Shown here: positions 8,306 to 19,757 of the stretch, piece by piece
Layout of the letters: every line of letters starts with the position of its first letter
Numbering within the stretch: the first letter of the stretch is position 1
IMG/VR virus record: IMGVR_UViG_3300037067_021324
DNA: 20,000 nucleotides
Direction: 5' to 3' (one strand)
DNA from: an uncultured virus (IMG/VR IMGVR_UViG_3300037067_021324)
Lineage: Duplodnaviria > Heunggongvirae > Uroviricota > Caudoviricetes
Made by a program: the position numbers and the translations under genes
The notes under the pieces: model-generated
What the model was told of the DNA's origin: nothing
The model's input: the letters and a program-made list of their open reading frames with translations, nothing else
The model's database searches: none

Positions 8306-8435
8306 ATAAAGTGGCTATTGAAAGAGTTACTTCGGTTTATAATTGGTTCGACTCCAATCGTGCCCACCAGAAATTCTGGGCGTGATTTATTCCTGGAGAC
8401 AGGAATATTACACTCTTCAAAACTTTCCCTTTTAT
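8306..8435 (+). ncRNA. Y RNA (YrlA-like) with circularly permuted tRNA-like domain
   Basis: 5' AAAG-TGGCTAT-TGAAAGAGT-TACTTCG pairs with 3' ACTCTTCAA-AACTTTCC-CTTT. Inside: T arm ATTGG/TTCGACT/CCAAT, acceptor-like CGTGCCC-ACCA...GGGCGTG, and a TATTCCTG-GAGA-CAGGAATA hairpin. Lies upstream of ro60. Confidence 0.8.
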
Positions 8436-8439
8436 TTTT

Positions 8440-8466
8440 GTAACTTTTTTAAAAATATTGCGTATA
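8440..8466 (+). promoter_or_regulatory. GTAAC-N16-CGTATA promoter-like motif (copy 1)
   Basis: Same motif and 16 nt spacer at 15660, 15991 and 19620; AAC...CGT resembles ECF-sigma promoters. Confidence 0.7.
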
Positions 8467-8505
8467 AGATAATGTTAGTTCTTTAAAATAGAATTTATAA
8501 AAAAT

Positions 8506-8570
8506 TATAGTGGCGATAAATAGAGATACTTCGATGCAAATGAAAAAACTCTGTTTGAAAATTCCCTATG
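8506..8570 (+). ncRNA. Short Y-RNA-like element 2
   Basis: TATAG-TGGCGAT-AAATAGAGA-TACTTCG...CTCTGTTTG-AAAATTCC-CTATG; same conserved motifs as element 1 with covarying stems. Confidence 0.7.
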
Positions 8571-8579
8571 TTTAAAATA

Positions 8580-8655
8580 TTTGAGTGGCTATTAAAAGCA
8601 GTTCATCGCTATTAGTAAATTGCAAAACAAACTTGCTTTAAGACTTTCCCTCAAA
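8580..8655 (+). ncRNA. Short Y-RNA-like element 3
   Basis: TTTGAG-TGGCTAT-TAAAAGCA-GTTCATCG...TGCTTTAA-GACTTTCC-CTCAAA; same architecture as elements 1 and 2. Confidence 0.7.
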
Positions 8656-8661
8656 AAACAT

Positions 8662-8704
8662 AATAGGGACACTATGTAGAAATACATTATGTCCCTATTT
8701 TTTT
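8662..8704 (+). terminator. Terminator-like hairpin between the Y RNA array and ro60
   Basis: AATAGGGACA...ATGTA-GAAA-TACAT...TGTCCCTATT followed by a T run. Confidence 0.75.
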
Positions 8705-8733: not shown

Positions 8734-10440
8734 ATGTCAAAATTTAACGAAAAAAGTGTGGCAAAAAACATAACCACAAATTATATGGGCGAGAAAGCTT
8801 ATATAGAAAAACCTGAATTTGAACTTGTTTCAATGCTTTTAACTTCATTTATGGAAGATTCATATTATGAAAAATCAAGTGATATGTTGGAAAGAATGAA
8901 GGCAGTATTAGAGAAAGTGGACACAAAATTTGCAGCAAAAGCTGCGATTTATGCGAGAAATGAATTTGGTATGAGGTCTATTTCTCATGTATTATCAATA
9001 GAATTATTGAAATATATTGGGGGACAGTCATGGGGAAAGAATTTCTTTGAATCTATTATCCGTAGGCCAGATGATATGACAGAAATCATCGCTTACTATT
9101 TTGCACAAGGGAATAAAAAGCTTCCTGCTGCAATTAAAAAAGGATTTGCTAAAGCATTTAATAAATTTGATAGATACCAAATTTCAAAATACAAAGGAAA
9201 AAATAAAAATGTTTCTCTTGTTGATGTTGTAAATCTTGTTCACCCACTTACAACCAAAAAAAATGGTGTTGTTGAAATAAAAAAGGATGAATATGCCGCC
9301 TTACTTGAAAAGAAATTAAAAAGTTTTGGGAAAAATGCAAATAAATATTCTGAAAAAATTGCAGAAATAAAAGCAAATTTAAATGAGATTAAAAATAATC
9401 AAGGAGATACTATTGAAATTTCAACTCTAAATGCATTGATGGCTGGCTTATTGAAAAACACAGAAACATGGGAAGCAAAGCTTTCAAAAGCCGGACAAGA
9501 AGCTAAATCTGATGAAGAAAAAGCAGAATTGAAAACAGAAGTTTGGAAAGATTTGTTTAAAGCAAAGAAAATGCCTTATATGGCTTTGCTAAAAAACTTA
9601 AGAAACATTTTTGAACAAGCTCCTGAACTTATTGATGAAGTTTGTGAAATGCTTGTTAATAGAAAAGCAATTGAAAATTCTTTGGTTCTTCCTTTTAGAT
9701 TTCTTTCAGCATATGAAGAAATAGAAAAACTCAAAAAAATAGGTACTTTCGAAAAAGATGAAGAAAATATTAGAAAGATTCTTGCTGCTATTGATGATGC
9801 TATTAAAACATCTGTTGTAAACTTGCCTACCTTATATGGAAAAACAGTTATTCTTTCCGATAATTCTGGAAGTATGACTGGTGATAGGGGTAATAGTTCG
9901 TTAATATCAAGATTGTCTAATATAAAAACAAGTGATATTGCAAATTTGTTTGCTGTACTTTATTGGCTAAAAGCTGATAATACTTTAGTTGGATTGTTTG
10001 GAGATAGATTAATATATCCAACACTTAACAGAAATGCTGGAGTATTTGAAAATTTTAAAGCAATTGATATCGAAAAAAACAAATGTGGGCCTAGCACTGA
10101 AAGAGGAATTTTTGATATGTTTGAAAAATTAATAAAAGAAAAAACTATAGTTGATTCAATTGTTGTTTTTTCTGACTGTCAAATAGGAAGTGGTTGTAAA
10201 TGGTATGACCAAAAAGGAAATCGTGGGGGAGAATTTAATAAATTATTTAATGATTATAAAAAAATAAGTCCAAAAGTTAGAGTGTATTCTGTAGATTTGA
10301 AAGGTTATGGAACAAACGTTTTCAATGATAATGTTTATAAAATTTTTGGATGGTCAGATAAAATATTTGACATCATGAAAGTTTTAGAACAGGACAAAAA
10401 TGCTCTTATTAAAATAATCAATGAATATGTTGATTTTTAA
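8734..10440 (+). CDS. Ro60/Rsr-like TROVE-domain ribonucleoprotein with C-terminal vWA domain
   Basis: TROVE motifs (TNYMGEKAY, AIYARNEFGMRS, RRPDDMTE, FD.YQ.SKY, DVVNLVHP, TWE, MPYMALLKNLRN, LPFRFLSAY), MIDAS DNSGSM, FSD.Q, VDLKGYG, IFGWSDKIF. Confidence 0.95.
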   Translation: MSKFNEKSVAKNITTNYMGEKAYIEKPEFELVSMLLTSFMEDSYYEKSSDMLERMKAVLEKVDTKFAAKAAIYARNEFGMRSISHVLSIELLKYIGGQSWGKNFFESIIRRPDDMTEIIAYYFAQGNKKLPAAIKKGFAKAFNKFDRYQISKYKGKNKNVSLVDVVNLVHPLTTKKNGVVEIKKDEYAALLEKKLKSFGKNANKYSEKIAEIKANLNEIKNNQGDTIEISTLNALMAGLLKNTETWEAKLSKAGQEAKSDEEKAELKTEVWKDLFKAKKMPYMALLKNLRNIFEQAPELIDEVCEMLVNRKAIENSLVLPFRFLSAYEEIEKLKKIGTFEKDEENIRKILAAIDDAIKTSVVNLPTLYGKTVILSDNSGSMTGDRGNSSLISRLSNIKTSDIANLFAVLYWLKADNTLVGLFGDRLIYPTLNRNAGVFENFKAIDIEKNKCGPSTERGIFDMFEKLIKEKTIVDSIVVFSDCQIGSGCKWYDQKGNRGGEFNKLFNDYKKISPKVRVYSVDLKGYGTNVFNDNVYKIFGWSDKIFDIMKVLEQDKNALIKIINEYVDF

Positions 10441-16062: not shown

Positions 16063-16464
16063 ATGAAGTAGATTGTTAAAAATAATGCAAAATTAGCTGT
16101 AGTAACAAGAGAAGATTTAAAATTCAGTTACCAAGCTATCCAAAGTGGTCATGCCTTGGCCAAGTTCTGTATAGAACATAATGATATTGCTAATTCCTGG
16201 CACAAAAATTCCCAGTATTTAACTTATTTATCTGTAAAAGATGAATCTGAACTATTATTCTTGATTGAGAAAGCTCATTCGAGAGGAATAGCTATTTCCA
16301 TATTCAGAGAACCTGATATTGATAATCAAATCACCGCAATTGCTATAGAACCATCTGACGACGCCAGAAGGTTGTGTGCAGGACTTCGTTGTGCCCTAAA
16401 AGAAAGTTATCAAAACGGCTTGATTGACAAAAATAGTTATAAACAAAATACAGTATTAATTTAA
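16063..16464 (+). CDS. PTH2-fold peptidyl-tRNA hydrolase-like protein with in-frame TAG at codon 3
   Basis: ATG AAG TAG ATT GTT... gives MK*IVKNNAKLAVVTREDLKFSYQAIQSGHALAKF..., in frame with the 16156 ORF. KL.VV.R.DL...Q..Q..HA and FREPD..NQITAIAIEP resemble PTH2-family motifs. Confidence 0.75.
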
Positions 16465-16845: not shown

Positions 16846-16897
16846 CGGGGAGTGCAAATTTGGTTGCAAATTGGGTGTTCGACCCACTCCTCCCCGA
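16846..16897 (+). ncRNA. Minimal tRNA-like element without a D arm
   Basis: Acceptor CGGGGAG/CTCCCCG, T arm GGGTG-TTCGACC-CACTC, only 20 nt between them. Confidence 0.55.
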
Positions 16898-16933: not shown

Positions 16934-17002
16934 GGGGAAAATAGCTTAAAGTAGAGCGATTGCTTTGACAAGATGTTGGTGGTTCATATCCATCTTTCCC
17001 CA
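16934..17002 (+). tRNA. Degenerate tRNA-like gene (possible TTG anticodon, malformed anticodon arm)
   Basis: Acceptor GGGGAAA/TTTCCCC, D stem GCTT/GAGC, T arm GGTGG-TTCATAT-CCATC; anticodon arm only TTG-CTTTGA-CAA. Confidence 0.55.
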
Positions 17003-17007
17003 CAAAT

Positions 17008-17190
17008 GGCTGTCTAACACATTTCAGATTGTGTAGTGATTAGAGAAATTAAATAACAATCAGCTGTAGTTATTTGAAAGTAAAAATTCATAAAACATGT
17101 AAAACCAATGTATAGCTTACATTGCGAAATGAGGTGTTAAATTCTAGAAGTAGCTATCTAGAGTTGGGGGTTCGAATCCTTCGGCGGCTA
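17008..17190 (+). ncRNA. tRNA-scaffold RNA with large structured insert
   Basis: Acceptor GGCTGTC/GGCGGCT-A, TA linker, D stem ACAC/GTGT, T arm GGGGG-TTCGAAT-CCTTC; about 130 nt between D and T arms with three AGCT-loop hairpins. Confidence 0.6.
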
Positions 17191-17220: not shown

Positions 17221-17655
17221 ATGAAACAATTAAAAAGTTCTACAATGCTTGAAGCATGTAAATATCAGAAGCCTTCGGCTTTCAGTAGAGGAATGTCAGT
17301 AAAACTAAAAATGGACACCGAAATGATATTTATATCTGGAACAGCGAGTGTGGGAGAAAATGGAGATACATTATACAAAGGAAATTTTAAAAAGCAAACA
17401 AAGAGAATGTTTGAAAATATTACAGCTCTTTTGAAAAATGGAGGAATAACCTGGAAAAATGTAATCAAAACCACAATTTACTTAAGAGATATTGACCGTG
17501 ATTATGAAGAATTTAATGTTATAAGAAAAGATTTTTATGACAAAATGGGGTTAAGCATATATCCTGCTTCAGTTTGTGTAGAAGCAAAATTATGTAGAAA
17601 TGATTTATTAGTAGAAATGGAGTTAATAGCAATAAAAGATGAAACCGTACAATAA
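17221..17655 (+). CDS. Rid (YjgF/YER057c/UK114) family protein
   Basis: PSAFSRG, IFISGTAS, QT..MFENI..LL, V.KTTIYL.D, FN..R..F, PAS..V...LCR.DLLVEME.IA; ATG at 17221. Confidence 0.88.
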   Translation: MKQLKSSTMLEACKYQKPSAFSRGMSVKLKMDTEMIFISGTASVGENGDTLYKGNFKKQTKRMFENITALLKNGGITWKNVIKTTIYLRDIDRDYEEFNVIRKDFYDKMGLSIYPASVCVEAKLCRNDLLVEMELIAIKDETVQ

Positions 17656-18088
17656 ATTTAAATCTTTCCAAATAAGATGGAAAGAAAAAATGGGGAAAGA
17701 TAAAAATGACCCATATCTTATTAGATGGACATTTATATTTTTTAATTATTCCATCAGGATTCATAAATGGATAAGGTCAGATGATAAGAGATTTTTTCAT
17801 GACCATTCTTGTAATCTTGTATCAATGATTTTAAAGGGATGGTATTATAATGTGATTCCAGTTGACCCTGAAAATCCAGATGTAAATAATTGTAAAAAAA
17901 TAAGAGCAAAAGCATGGAAACCATGGTATGCAAATGCAAAGAAAAAACATTATTTGGAAATTCCTAAAGAAGGTGCCTGGACAATATTATTCTGTGGAAG
18001 GCCATACCACAAATGGGGATTCTATGTAAAAGGAAAAAGAGTAAGACCATTAAAATATTTTTATAAGTATGGAATGGTAAATGAATAA
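17639..18088 (+). CDS. Cupin-like phage protein
   Basis: YL.RW....F..SIRIH....SDD.R.FHDH...L.S.ILKGWY and H.LE....AWTILF.G....KWGF motifs. Confidence 0.7.
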   Translation: MKPYNKFKSFQIRWKEKMGKDKNDPYLIRWTFIFFNYSIRIHKWIRSDDKRFFHDHSCNLVSMILKGWYYNVIPVDPENPDVNNCKKIRAKAWKPWYANAKKKHYLEIPKEGAWTILFCGRPYHKWGFYVKGKRVRPLKYFYKYGMVNE

Positions 18089-18093
18089 AAGAG

Positions 18094-18300
18094 CGCCCTT
18101 TAGCTCAGTTGGTCAGAGTACCTGTCATCGAAAATTTCGTATTAGCTATACGAGAGAATAGATGGAGTATGAGTGGAATTATTGAAAGTAAAAAAAGTGG
18201 AGTGTTAAAAAGCTATTAATGTGAAACTAGAATGAAATCAATTTGGAAATAAGTACTTTATACTTGCAGGAGGTCCGAGGTTCGAATCCAAGGGGGGCGA
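18094..18300 (+). ncRNA. tRNA with anticodon loop replaced by a 140 nt structured insert
   Basis: Acceptor CGCCCTT/GGGGGCG-A, TAGCTCAGTTGGTCAGAGT D arm, anticodon stem CCTGT/GCAGG, variable loop AGGTC, T loop TTCGAAT (T stem has two mismatches); insert 18126-18265. Confidence 0.7.
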
Positions 18301-18452: not shown

Positions 18453-18935
18453 CTAATGTTTACACTTTTTGCAAGATTGTTTTCCGCAATAAGTTTCTGT
18501 TTGACTATGACAGTTTGGACACAGAAATCTCAGATTGCTCAATCTATTATCATTGTTAATGCCATTTTTGTGGTCTAATTGTAATGTTAATGTTTTATCT
18601 AGCCATTCACCATTATTGTTGCACTCACAACATGTATACTGTAAAAGACCTGCTTTGATAATTCTTAATTTCAATCTATAATTATTATTATATTGTGAAT
18701 CCTGTACAAGGATTTCATTTAATGGCACCCCACGTTCTCCACACAATTTGTGTCCCAACATATGGCTGACAGATAATTCTTCATCACGTATTCTGTTGTT
18801 GATTTTATTGTAATTTGACGCACTTGTATATTTATATCCAAGTTTTAACAAAGCATGCTTAATGCTCACACTCGATTCAATTACTTTTTTAAATTCCTCT
18901 TTAGAAATTGAATCAATTTTTGTTTTGTTTTTCAT
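18453..18935 (-). CDS. HNH endonuclease (tRNA-cluster associated, homing-type)
   Basis: C..C...W....L.LQLDHKNG...DNRLSNLRFLCPNCHSQT motif; lies antisense between tRNA genes; TAG stop. Confidence 0.92.
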   Translation of the reverse strand: MKNKTKIDSISKEEFKKVIESSVSIKHALLKLGYKYTSASNYNKINNRIRDEELSVSHMLGHKLCGERGVPLNEILVQDSQYNNNYRLKLRIIKAGLLQYTCCECNNNGEWLDKTLTLQLDHKNGINNDNRLSNLRFLCPNCHSQTETYCGKQSCKKCKH

Positions 18936-19036: not shown

Positions 19037-19110
19037 GGGAATGTAGCTCAGAGGCAGAGCAATCCACTCTAGATGGATTTTGGTCGCAGGTTCGAATCCT
19101 GTCTTTCCTT
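19037..19110 (+). tRNA. tRNA with CUA anticodon (amber suppressor 1)
   Basis: Acceptor GGGAATG/CTTTCCT (one U-U), D arm GCTC-AGAGGCA-GAGC, anticodon arm ATCCA-CTCTAGA-TGGAT (CTA at 19069-19071), T arm GCAGG-TTCGAAT-CCTGT; CCA not encoded. Confidence 0.85.
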
Positions 19111-19165
19111 CAATTGCACAAGGTGTACAGTTATAAATTAAAATAAAAATTTAAAAAAAATAATT

Positions 19166-19684: not shown

Positions 19685-19757
19685 CCCCCCATAGCTCAGT
19701 TGATTAGAGCAGTGGACTCTAAATCCATGGTCGAGAGTTTGAATCTCTCTGGGGTGG
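19685..19757 (+). tRNA. tRNA with CUA anticodon (amber suppressor 2)
   Basis: Acceptor CCCCCCA/TGGGGTG (one mismatch), D arm GCTC-AGTTGATTA-GAGC, anticodon arm GTGGA-CTCTAAA-TCCAT (CTA at 19719-19721), T arm GAGAG-TTTGAAT-CTCTC. Confidence 0.85.

Follow-up and report, generated by a model that had tools for sequence, protein, structure and literature searches.

The tRNA region of phage T4 gives rise to two small stable RNAs, C and D, whose role is described as unknown (PMC3014915). By analogy, they appear to be the closest described counterparts of the gene analyzed here, which we call E1 and which occupies positions 17008 to 17190 (+ strand) of a 20,000-nucleotide (nt) stretch of DNA from an uncultured Caudoviricetes virus (IMG/VR record IMGVR_UViG_3300037067_021324). 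We refer to this whole stretch as the window. A second gene, E2, occupies positions 18094 to 18300 (+ strand, 207 nt), and covariance models of E2 (R1) and E1 (R2) served for the searches described below. Like E1 and E2, T4 rnaC and rnaD (species 1 and 2; 139 and 119 nt) are longer than a tRNA and lie in a phage tRNA array by a homing endonuclease gene (segB), and rnaC resembles E1 in its paired ends and its T arm (CCGGG-UUCGAAU-CCCGG). However, rnaC has neither a tRNA-type D arm nor the AGCU loops of E1 and E2, and tRNA-Ile is the only match of R1 in the T4 region, with no sequence or model similarity to the T4 RNAs.

Several other RNAs share part of this design. The Lak megaphages, as far as the statements on their tRNAs in PMC8346664 go, resemble the window phage in carrying TAG suppressor tRNAs and in having tRNA inserts that finders run in bacterial mode miss. 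A blastn search of a phage collection (50,697 records), which bears on this comparison, returned no DNA similar to E1 or E2, its hits being confined to the HNH gene and a suppressor tRNA. YrlA RNAs are, like E1 and E2, noncoding tRNA mimics with T and D arms; they are handled by tRNA enzymes and also occur in phages. However, they are permuted, running from T arm through a closed acceptor-like stem-loop to D arm, and the ends of the RNA form the Ro60-binding stem; their GNCGAA motif and rsr-adjacent position further separate them from E1 and E2 (PMC4201824). Similarly, tmRNA encloses a large structured insert between acceptor stem and T arm, but E1 and E2 differ from it in having D stems. We rejected a tmRNA identity: ARAGORN finds none, both elements carry C3-G70 and not G-U, and no reading frame for a tag is present: a stop codon stands directly upstream of the sole conserved UAA. 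In the engineered “tRNA scaffold,” an RNA of interest takes the place of the anticodon arm and borrows the processing and stability of a tRNA; that is a laboratory design, whereas the arrangement in E1 and E2 is natural. Several of the RNAs ROOL, GOLLD, OLE, and manA are phage associated and lie near tRNA genes. ROOL, GOLLD, and OLE form RNA-only homo-oligomers (PMC12286853), which also occur among RNAs shorter than 200 nt, including the manA motif (bioRxiv 10.64898/2026.07.01.735769). They assemble through RNA-RNA contacts and have no known function; E1 and E2 resemble them in that their own loops are, by sequence, self-complementary. E1 and E2 differ in their tRNA bodies and show no homology (no Rfam hit), and oligomers of E1 and E2 are only predicted.

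We propose that E1 is a non-decoding tRNA-scaffold RNA that retains its insert, a reading that we consider probable on balance. The gene is 183 nt long including the discriminator A17190, as delimited by its sequence, its fold, and an orthologue (L001:2635-2819) in G001, a 372-kb IMG/VR phage contig that is the nearest relative of the window (CheckV, 100% complete) and the source of the L001 locus. E1 presents the parts of a tRNA in normal order. The 5′ strand of the acceptor stem (GGCTGTC, 17008-17014, +) pairs with GGCGGCT at 17183-17189 in seven pairs, three of them G-U, with G1-U72 at the end. U8-A9 follow the acceptor stem, and the D arm (17017-17034, +) has a 4-bp stem (ACAC/GUGU), which loses one pair in the orthologue, and a loop, AUUUCAGAUU, without the usual GG. 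The T arm (17166-17182, +; GGGGG-UUCGAAU-CCUUC) is canonical by sequence and pair check. Compared with a canonical tRNA, E1 has all seven acceptor pairs, all five T-stem pairs, and the UUCGAAU T loop. Between the D and T arms lies an insert of about 130 nt with three hairpins, each carrying AGCU in its loop: h1 (17049-17077, +; 9 bp) has the loop AAUCAGCUGUA, which contains the 6-nt palindrome CAGCUG and is identical in the orthologue; h2 (17106-17124, +; 7 bp) has the loop UAGCU, changed to UAGCA in the orthologue; and h3 (17142-17163, +; 7 bp), at the site expected for an anticodon or variable arm, has the loop AGUAGCUA, which becomes AAUAGUUA in the orthologue.

E1 can probably not read codons, since the three hairpins replace the anticodon arm. 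If h3 is taken as that arm, it has an 8-nt loop in which the triplet that follows the U is AGC in the window but has become AGU in G001. E1 is not called by ARAGORN even with introns allowed, and no form of excision yields a decoding tRNA from it. RNAfold gives E1 a minimum free energy (MFE) of -44.5 kcal/mol (z = -2.79), which 1 of 200 shuffles equals; h2 and h3 are present in both the MFE and the centroid structure and h1 in the MFE structure alone. The sequence AGCT occurs five times in the two inserts (274 nt) against 0.84 expected at the density of the window (Poisson P of ~0.002), and no 134-nt stretch of the window exceeds the three copies of E1. The inserts also share the 13-mer UUGAAAGUAAAAA (17074-17086, +), whose core AGUAA is kept in relatives. 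As DNA (TTGAAAGTAAAAA) it has exactly two copies in the 20 kb, at 17074-17086 and, as an exact match, at 18182-18194 (+). By itself the 13-mer is weak evidence, because it is AT rich and shuffles often contain two or more copies (34 of 200 when up to one mismatch is allowed); its core, RAGUAA, is found again in relatives that come from other phages. A preliminary description, made from the letters of the window, had set the acceptor stem, D stem, and T arm of E1 around three AGCU-loop hairpins within a base or two of the positions given here. It also stated correctly that AGCU lies in loops, which folding bears out, that the element at 18094 has two more such loops, and that the same 13-mer stands in both inserts on differing tRNA bodies.

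Default ARAGORN and Rfam searches call neither E1 nor E2, and there is no match to the tRNA family RF00005 even at E values up to 10. In the window, default ARAGORN reports two tRNA(CUA) genes alone, to which Rfam adds an odd tRNA at 16935-17002. Rfam scans of the window and nine related loci, by gathering threshold and by E value, assign E1 and E2 to no family. Our own script for split tRNAs, applied to 100 kb of G001, is noisy in AT-rich DNA; it recovers E1 and its orthologue and misses E2 and the further element E3 described below. Huge phages carry dozens of tRNA genes, the odd ones of which escape standard finders.

The two E1 orthologues are 89% identical, and the changes between them largely preserve pairing. 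The 39 drawn pairs, counted in both orthologues, give 78 cells, 97.4% of which pair; 38 of the 39 pairs are kept, and two cells are broken. Five pairs change on both sides (two in h1 and one each in the acceptor stem, h2, and h3), and five more change on one side and still pair. The acceptor stem has all seven pairs in both orthologues, with C7-G66 replaced by U-A and two G-U pairs by Watson-Crick pairs, and h2 and h3 each show a compensatory change from A-U to G-C. When the 3′ partners were slid by one to three columns as a control, pairing fell to 37 to 46%, with no more than one double change. Differences number 18 in the 78 paired columns and 22 in the 107 unpaired columns, and conservation of the loops and linkers exceeds that of the stems: hardly any change in the orthologue falls in the h1 loop or in the linkers GAGUAAA, AAAACAUGUAAAA, and GCGAAAUGA. 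AGCU itself is kept in h1 of G001, whereas h2 reads UAGCA and h3 reads AAUAGUUA. Taken together, these comparisons point to an E1 structure that is under selection.

E2 has the same overall design on a different body and supplies the broader comparison. Its body has C1-G72, A73, a D arm with GG, a variable loop AGGUC, and an irregular T arm. Compared with a canonical tRNA, the acceptor stem is present and the T stem is irregular, and 140 nt separate the strands of the anticodon stem: CCUGU (18121-18125) pairs with GCAGG (18266-18270) around the insert 18126-18265. The insert contains hairpin h1 (18135-18155, +; loop UAGCU, with AGCU at 18144), which shows compensatory changes relative to L001, and hairpin h2 (18202-18222, +; loop AAAGCUA, with AGCU at 18211), the hairpin whose AGCU loop is conserved in the E2-type family. 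Folded by itself, E2 does no better than shuffled sequences (z = -0.97), so its structure rests on covariation instead. G001 has an orthologue at L001:3875-4083, and a 321-kb phage has one at L066:1878-2084. All three copies share C1-G72, the D arm, the CCUGU/GCAGG stem followed by AGGUC, and the irregular T arm, and spacing within their core (AAAGUAAA-N17-AAGCU-N15-GRAUGAAAU) does not vary; the cupin proteins encoded beside the other two copies are 85% and 44% identical to the one in the window. The exact core pattern occurs in IMG/VR in just the two contigs already known; a looser pattern gave 62 stretches, of which only those in the same two contigs have the hairpin and tRNA flanks.

We searched 63 IMG/VR loci, taken around relatives of the 149-amino-acid cupin-fold protein encoded next to E2, with R1, which scores E2 itself at 219 bits. 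The search found many tRNA-like genes, several of them 130 to 230 nt long, and a search of whole records added others. The E2-type family comprises nine long sequences from separate phage contigs, all nine with C1-G72. In their alignment, which was fitted to the model and is thus biased in favor of structure, 93.4% of 271 cells pair and 27 of 36 pairs change on both sides, values that none of 500 shuffles reaches; each of the seven pairs of the h2 stem shows a two-sided change somewhere among the nine sequences. The core aligns in seven of the nine as AGUAA, then a hairpin of 5 to 7 bp, and then a RUGAAA-like sequence. In six of these seven relatives the h2 loop fits NWAGCUR (GAAGCUG, AAAGCUA twice, GUAGCUA, UUAGCUA, and UUAGCUG), and in the seventh, L024, it is UAGGCCA, whose GGCC is still self-complementary. 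The h2 loop of E2 is, to judge by these alignments, the one AGCU loop conserved across several phages; most E2-type relatives have a single such loop. Thermodynamic folding of the three E2 inserts is inconsistent in the middle part and does not fix the helices around the core. The first hairpins of other E2-type relatives have palindromic centers (GGUUAACC, GUUAAC, and AACGUU), to which we give no weight because they may be mere stem extension.

E2 carries all the features by which we define the E2 type: C1-G72, A73, A35-C36, and a core of AGUAA, a palindromic-loop hairpin, and UGAAA. E1, with G1-U72 and without A35-C36, lies outside this definition and has only insert motifs in common, namely AGUAAA, the AGCU-loop hairpin, and GAAAUGA / GAAUGAAAU. 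A likeness of the elements to T-box Stem I (GUGGAA, AGAGA, and AGUA motifs with a GUA valine codon) was set aside, as Rfam gave it no support. The further element E3 (L001:2828-2976), a third tRNA look-alike with an insert, between E1 and the RidA-like gene of G001, has G1-C72, A73, UAC before the 3′ stem strand, and the motifs GGAGUAAAAAGG and UUAAUGAG; it is absent from the window, so such elements are gained or lost quickly.

Short odd tRNAs stand beside the cupin gene in other phages as well. They start with C1, mostly have discriminator A, and have anticodon loops of 4 to 12 nt; the one at L014:2423-2502 has an E2-like stem and variable loop (UCUGU ... GCAGA-AGGUC) with the same irregular T arm but an 8-nt loop. 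N-A-C is the valine anticodon, and valyl-tRNA synthetase recognizes its tRNA mainly by A35, C36, and A73; E2-type RNAs retain these bases but have no anticodon loop that could be read. With E1 set aside, a script found A35-C36, 4 and 3 nt ahead of the 3′ anticodon-stem strand, in 16 of 28 look-alikes, and manual re-reading of six misassigned stems raised this to 22 of 28; among the six exceptions, two are shifted by one base, two have GCAA tetraloops, and two are without a clear stem. The distance between the stem strands is 4, 6, 7, 8, 9, 12, 42, or 124 to 160 nt. We read this series as a graded expansion 5′ of the anticodon-like bases, in a loop that may have been freed from the need to fit the ribosome, with E2 at the long end; graded lengths suggest expansion and not the presence or absence of an intron.

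Some look-alikes depart from this series. Those at L043:1905-2074 and L055:2028-2198 carry their insert, about 95 nt long, in the D loop, and their anticodon loops (AUUUACAU and AUUUACUU) have 8 nt. At L037:2106-2330, two look-alikes whose anticodon arm is a 7-bp stem with a GCAA tetraloop flank a tRNA-Val(AAC)-like gene with A33. Three ordinary-looking tRNAs (L064:3295-3474 and L062:892-1069 and 1179-1354), with loops that start CUUCUA or CUUCAU, carry inserts of about 105 nt at the classical position 37/38. These inserts start with ACGGAWUUAUCCACCGAAACGGAU, contain a T-arm-like hairpin, and belong to a family distinct from the inserts of E1 and E2. They do look like introns, and they leave the CUUCUA-type loop intact.

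The top half of E1 (acceptor stem, D stem, T arm, and discriminator A) may have been kept for the host tRNA machinery. The tight tRNA array and the intact acceptor and T arms suggest that RNase P and 3′ trimming would free E1 from the array; CCA, which is not encoded, would be added, and the RNA would be stabilized. The expansion of about 130 nt, with its hairpins and conserved single-stranded linkers, would then stay in the mature RNA as its working part. E2 would follow the same design on another body, as a valine-type look-alike with 140 nt placed 5′ of the anticodon-like bases. For the hairpins we consider RNA-RNA kissing the most likely role, either within one molecule (E1 h2 with h3, E2 h1 with h2) or between copies; symmetric binding by a protein is an alternative that would explain the palindromes equally well. 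The self-complementary motifs are AGCU in E1 and E2, CAGCUG and UAGCUA in E1, and GGCC in L024. In the window, UAGCU of E1 h2 is complementary to AGCUA of h3 over 5 nt, and likewise UAGCU of E2 h1 to AGCUA of h2; in G001 the contacts are reduced to four pairs with a G-U. There, UAGCUA of E1 h3 has become UAGUUA, which can still self-pair through G-U, and CAGCUG of h1 is kept. Pairing of an AGCU loop with the anticodon loop of a suppressor tRNA was also considered and rejected, as it allows 3 bp at most. The RNAs may have a role in a tRNA-centered conflict between phage and host. A more specific scenario, which we think distinctly unlikely as a whole, would make E1 and E2 non-decoding mimics, E2 perhaps charged by valyl-tRNA synthetase through A35, C36, and A73, that form palindromic kissing-loop dimers or larger assemblies and possibly trap a tRNA-directed host defense nuclease, a synthetase, or a real tRNA while a suppressor-using phage takes over.

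Several observations weigh against a retained, functional insert in E1. The evidence for E1 is two sequences that are 89% identical, and 18 of 500 shuffles match the observed covariation. The only strong match of R2 among 40 related phage records is in G001; two others, at 26.8 bits each, are unrelated 136-nt elements. A metagenome scan with the E1 pattern gave at least 118 stretches, and in the DNA of the 80 loci examined, R2 found no relative of E1, its one match (21.6 bits) lying off the pattern site. With one of 40 records and none of the 80 loci, E1 is real but appears to be a young lineage of narrow distribution. The new family of phage noncoding RNAs foreseen in the preliminary description is supported in that Rfam has no family for these RNAs and E2 is broad (at least nine contigs), whereas E1 is found only narrowly (1 of 40 records). 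Conservation of the motifs in related phages likewise stands for the structures, with their compensatory changes, and for the h2 loop of E2 (six of seven), but not for the h2 and h3 loops of E1. For kissing, the evidence consists of the loop sequences: a co-change of AGCU to GGCC speaks for it, a change of UAGCUA to UAGUUA is neutral, and E1 h2 of the orthologue (UAGCA) has lost self-complementarity. None of the 12 listed public runs with window DNA is registered as RNA. The tRNAs of Lak phages were “previously established to contain introns” (PMC8346664), and, by eye, 7 of 11 long inserts lie between Y32 and U33-N34-A35-C36-N37-N38.

These last two points belong to the alternative that we take most seriously while still regarding it as doubtful, namely, that E1 and E2 are intron-interrupted tRNA genes whose insert is removed, by itself or by phage or host enzymes, to leave an ordinary or near-ordinary tRNA, of valine type for E2. 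In the seven genes just mentioned (in L001, L066, L067, L020, G006, G038, and G014), excision would leave a canonical 7-nt valine loop. Some long relatives, their insert looped out, match the tRNA model of Rfam (for example, L138:201-389 with 46 bits and L064:3295-3474 with 54.8 bits), the insert motifs of E1, E2, and E3 stand on unrelated tRNA bodies as those of mobile introns would, an HNH endonuclease gene lies 150 nt 3′ of E2, and G001 encodes the RNA ligase RtcB. Huge-phage tRNAs are reported, in one sentence of the Lak source cited above, to have introns; E1, in contrast to such tRNAs, is not reducible to a canonical one. Judged by sequence, introns fit several E2 relatives but not E1: E1 has E2-like insert motifs but no tRNA to restore, and its would-be anticodon differs between the two orthologues. 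Excision from E2 of the window would leave A33 or an 8-nt loop, and the intron parses of E2 by ARAGORN are inconsistent (Pro-TGG in the window and Lys-TTT in L001). Known group I introns measure about 200 nt or more, their 5′ exon ends in U, and the intron ends in G. The inserts, however, are just 105 to 160 nt long, they are mostly preceded by C, and U33 is preceded by A or U; Intron_gpI of Rfam has no match in the window region at E values up to 10 or in nine related loci at E values up to 1. As for archaeal-type introns, no bulge-helix-bulge could be drawn manually at the E2 junction of the window, the one junction so inspected, and EndA (PF01974) is found in none of five related phage records, two of them complete genomes. 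RtcB is present in two of the five records but not in G002, a complete genome with E2. Finally, the uninterrupted relatives carry loops of 4 to 12 nt at the same site, lengths that cannot be introns. Should the inserts be removed, they would be introns too small for any known self-splicing class; should they be retained, E2-type RNAs would form a new set of tRNA mimics, often with a conserved cupin enzyme adjoining. Either outcome would inform how large phages handle translation, and the set is in any case one of tRNA-derived phage RNAs among little-studied tRNA look-alikes.

According to the preliminary description, the AGCU loops would be repeated sites that soak up a protein, as in CsrB, or a decoy for a host RNase or toxin. 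Each RNA indeed has several similar loops on differing stems, AGCT is enriched as given above, the h2 loop is kept in six of seven relatives, and the neighborhood is rich in genes for tRNA and RNA repair (PTH2-like, RidA/L-PSP, and Ro60/TROVE) that would suit a tRNA-centered conflict. However, the five loops counted in the window are not conserved as a number: the closest relative keeps only three of the five. Multivalency is not conserved either, since one AGCU loop is all that most E2-type relatives have. The sole loop change in the h2 series leads to GGCC, another palindrome, which points to self-pairing or at most to a symmetric binder, and no candidate binding protein was found, the adjoining cupin having a generic metal-enzyme fold. 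We therefore hold such a sponge or decoy to be very unlikely. It is still less probable that the phage Ro60/TROVE protein has E1 and E2 as its Y RNA partners, tRNA mimics of the YrlA kind. A TROVE-domain protein is encoded at 8734-10440, and tRNA-like domains occur in bacterial and phage Y RNAs (PMC4201824), but E1 and E2 keep the normal order of D and then T arm, their ends form an acceptor stem, inspection by eye finds no GNCGAAN0-1G motif in them, and they lie 6.5 to 7.6 kb from the TROVE gene, next to which three units at 8309-8664, with matching 5′ and 3′ ends and one T arm, are better candidates. Decaying tRNA pseudogenes, broken by junk or by a small mobile insertion, would account for the noncanonical loops, the irregular T arm of E2, and the silence of standard tRNA finders. 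This explanation is hardly tenable given the compensatory changes in every hairpin and the loops and linkers kept across phages whose neighboring protein is only 44% identical.

The window stems from a huge phage (relatives of 321 to 372 kb), in which E1 and E2 belong to a 3-kb array of six tRNA-related genes, the others being a mini tRNA, a tRNA with a 6-nt loop, and two amber suppressors. The array begins with the mini tRNA-like element (16846-16896, +; z = -2.95), which lacks a D arm; besides an acceptor stem of 7 bp and a T arm, it has a single hairpin, of 5 bp and with 6 or 7 nt in the loop. Its orthologue (L001:2472-2523) has a like fold (z = -2.24), and both copies fold better than shuffles. 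The odd tRNA (16935-17002, +; 41.1 bits with the Rfam tRNA model), 5 nt upstream of E1, has an anticodon loop shortened to 6 nt that reads CUUUGA in the window and CUUCGA in L001:2561-2630, where the gene is called tRNA-?(tc); kept in both phages, the short loop is not a sequencing error. The two tRNA(CUA) amber suppressors lie at 19037-19111 and 19685-19757 (both +). A PTH2-like gene (16156-16464, +) precedes the array, and a RidA/L-PSP-like gene (17221-17655, +) and the 149-amino-acid cupin-fold protein gene (17639-18088, +), which stops 5 nt before E2, lie within it. The TROVE/Ro60 gene (8734-10440) is identified by Pfam (E = 1.3e-24).

The cupin-fold protein has 557 homologues, which are 44 to 87% identical; it has an HxH...H motif and belongs to no Pfam family, and its AlphaFold model has a predicted local distance difference test (pLDDT) score of 88.7. 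Foldseek matches in the PDB are generic cupins (HppE, auxin-binding protein, and oxalate decarboxylase; E of ~3e-5), and no known RNA-binding relative of the cupin is among the top matches. Of the 63 loci, 15 have a tRNA or tRNA-like gene no more than 100 nt from the cupin gene; the number rises to 21 at 300 nt and to 40 at 1 kb, and 22 loci show none. These counts are lower bounds, as E2 in L007 escaped the script, as did some L043-type repeats. The link between cupin gene and tRNA look-alikes is real but not universal, and the protein may act on the odd valine-type look-alikes beside it. The HNH endonuclease gene (18453-18935, - strand), about 150 nt downstream of E2, is 74 to 77% identical in DNA to many unrelated phages, and a contig from another public run matches the window up to 18300 and diverges just after; it thus appears to be a variable mobile insertion immediately 3′ of E2. 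Contigs of four DNA runs were compared with the window, and none of the differences listed (103 others lie beyond these) falls in E1 or E2. The public runs with window DNA are labeled as landfill and groundwater metagenomes; no result of the analysis supports the assumption of a Bacteroidota phage made in the preliminary description.

The nearest relative is rich in tRNA genes: G001 has 50 tRNA matches, with amber and ochre suppressors. ARAGORN lists 45 tRNA genes in its first 100 kb (L002-L006), three of which are suppressors (two amber, CUA, and one ochre, UUA) and none of which is a tRNA-Glu or tRNA-Ile(GAU); three more tRNA matches, which are untyped, lie near 338 to 341 kb. Directly 5′ of the TROVE gene of the window, positions 8309-8664 (+) hold three tandem units that start with RGUGGCNAU...AGAG-like and end with CUUUCCCU-like sequences. 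The three have no Rfam hit and unconvincing thermodynamic folds, and a T-arm-like AAUUGGUUCGACUCCAAUC lies in the first; the units are probably Y RNAs, one of them YrlA-like. In the 321-kb phage, the stretch L066:1640-1870, about 230 nt long and 5′ of E2, pairs at its ends (AAAGUAGUAG ... CUAAUCUACUUU), contains GCGAAA / ACGAAA motifs three times, and may be another structured RNA.

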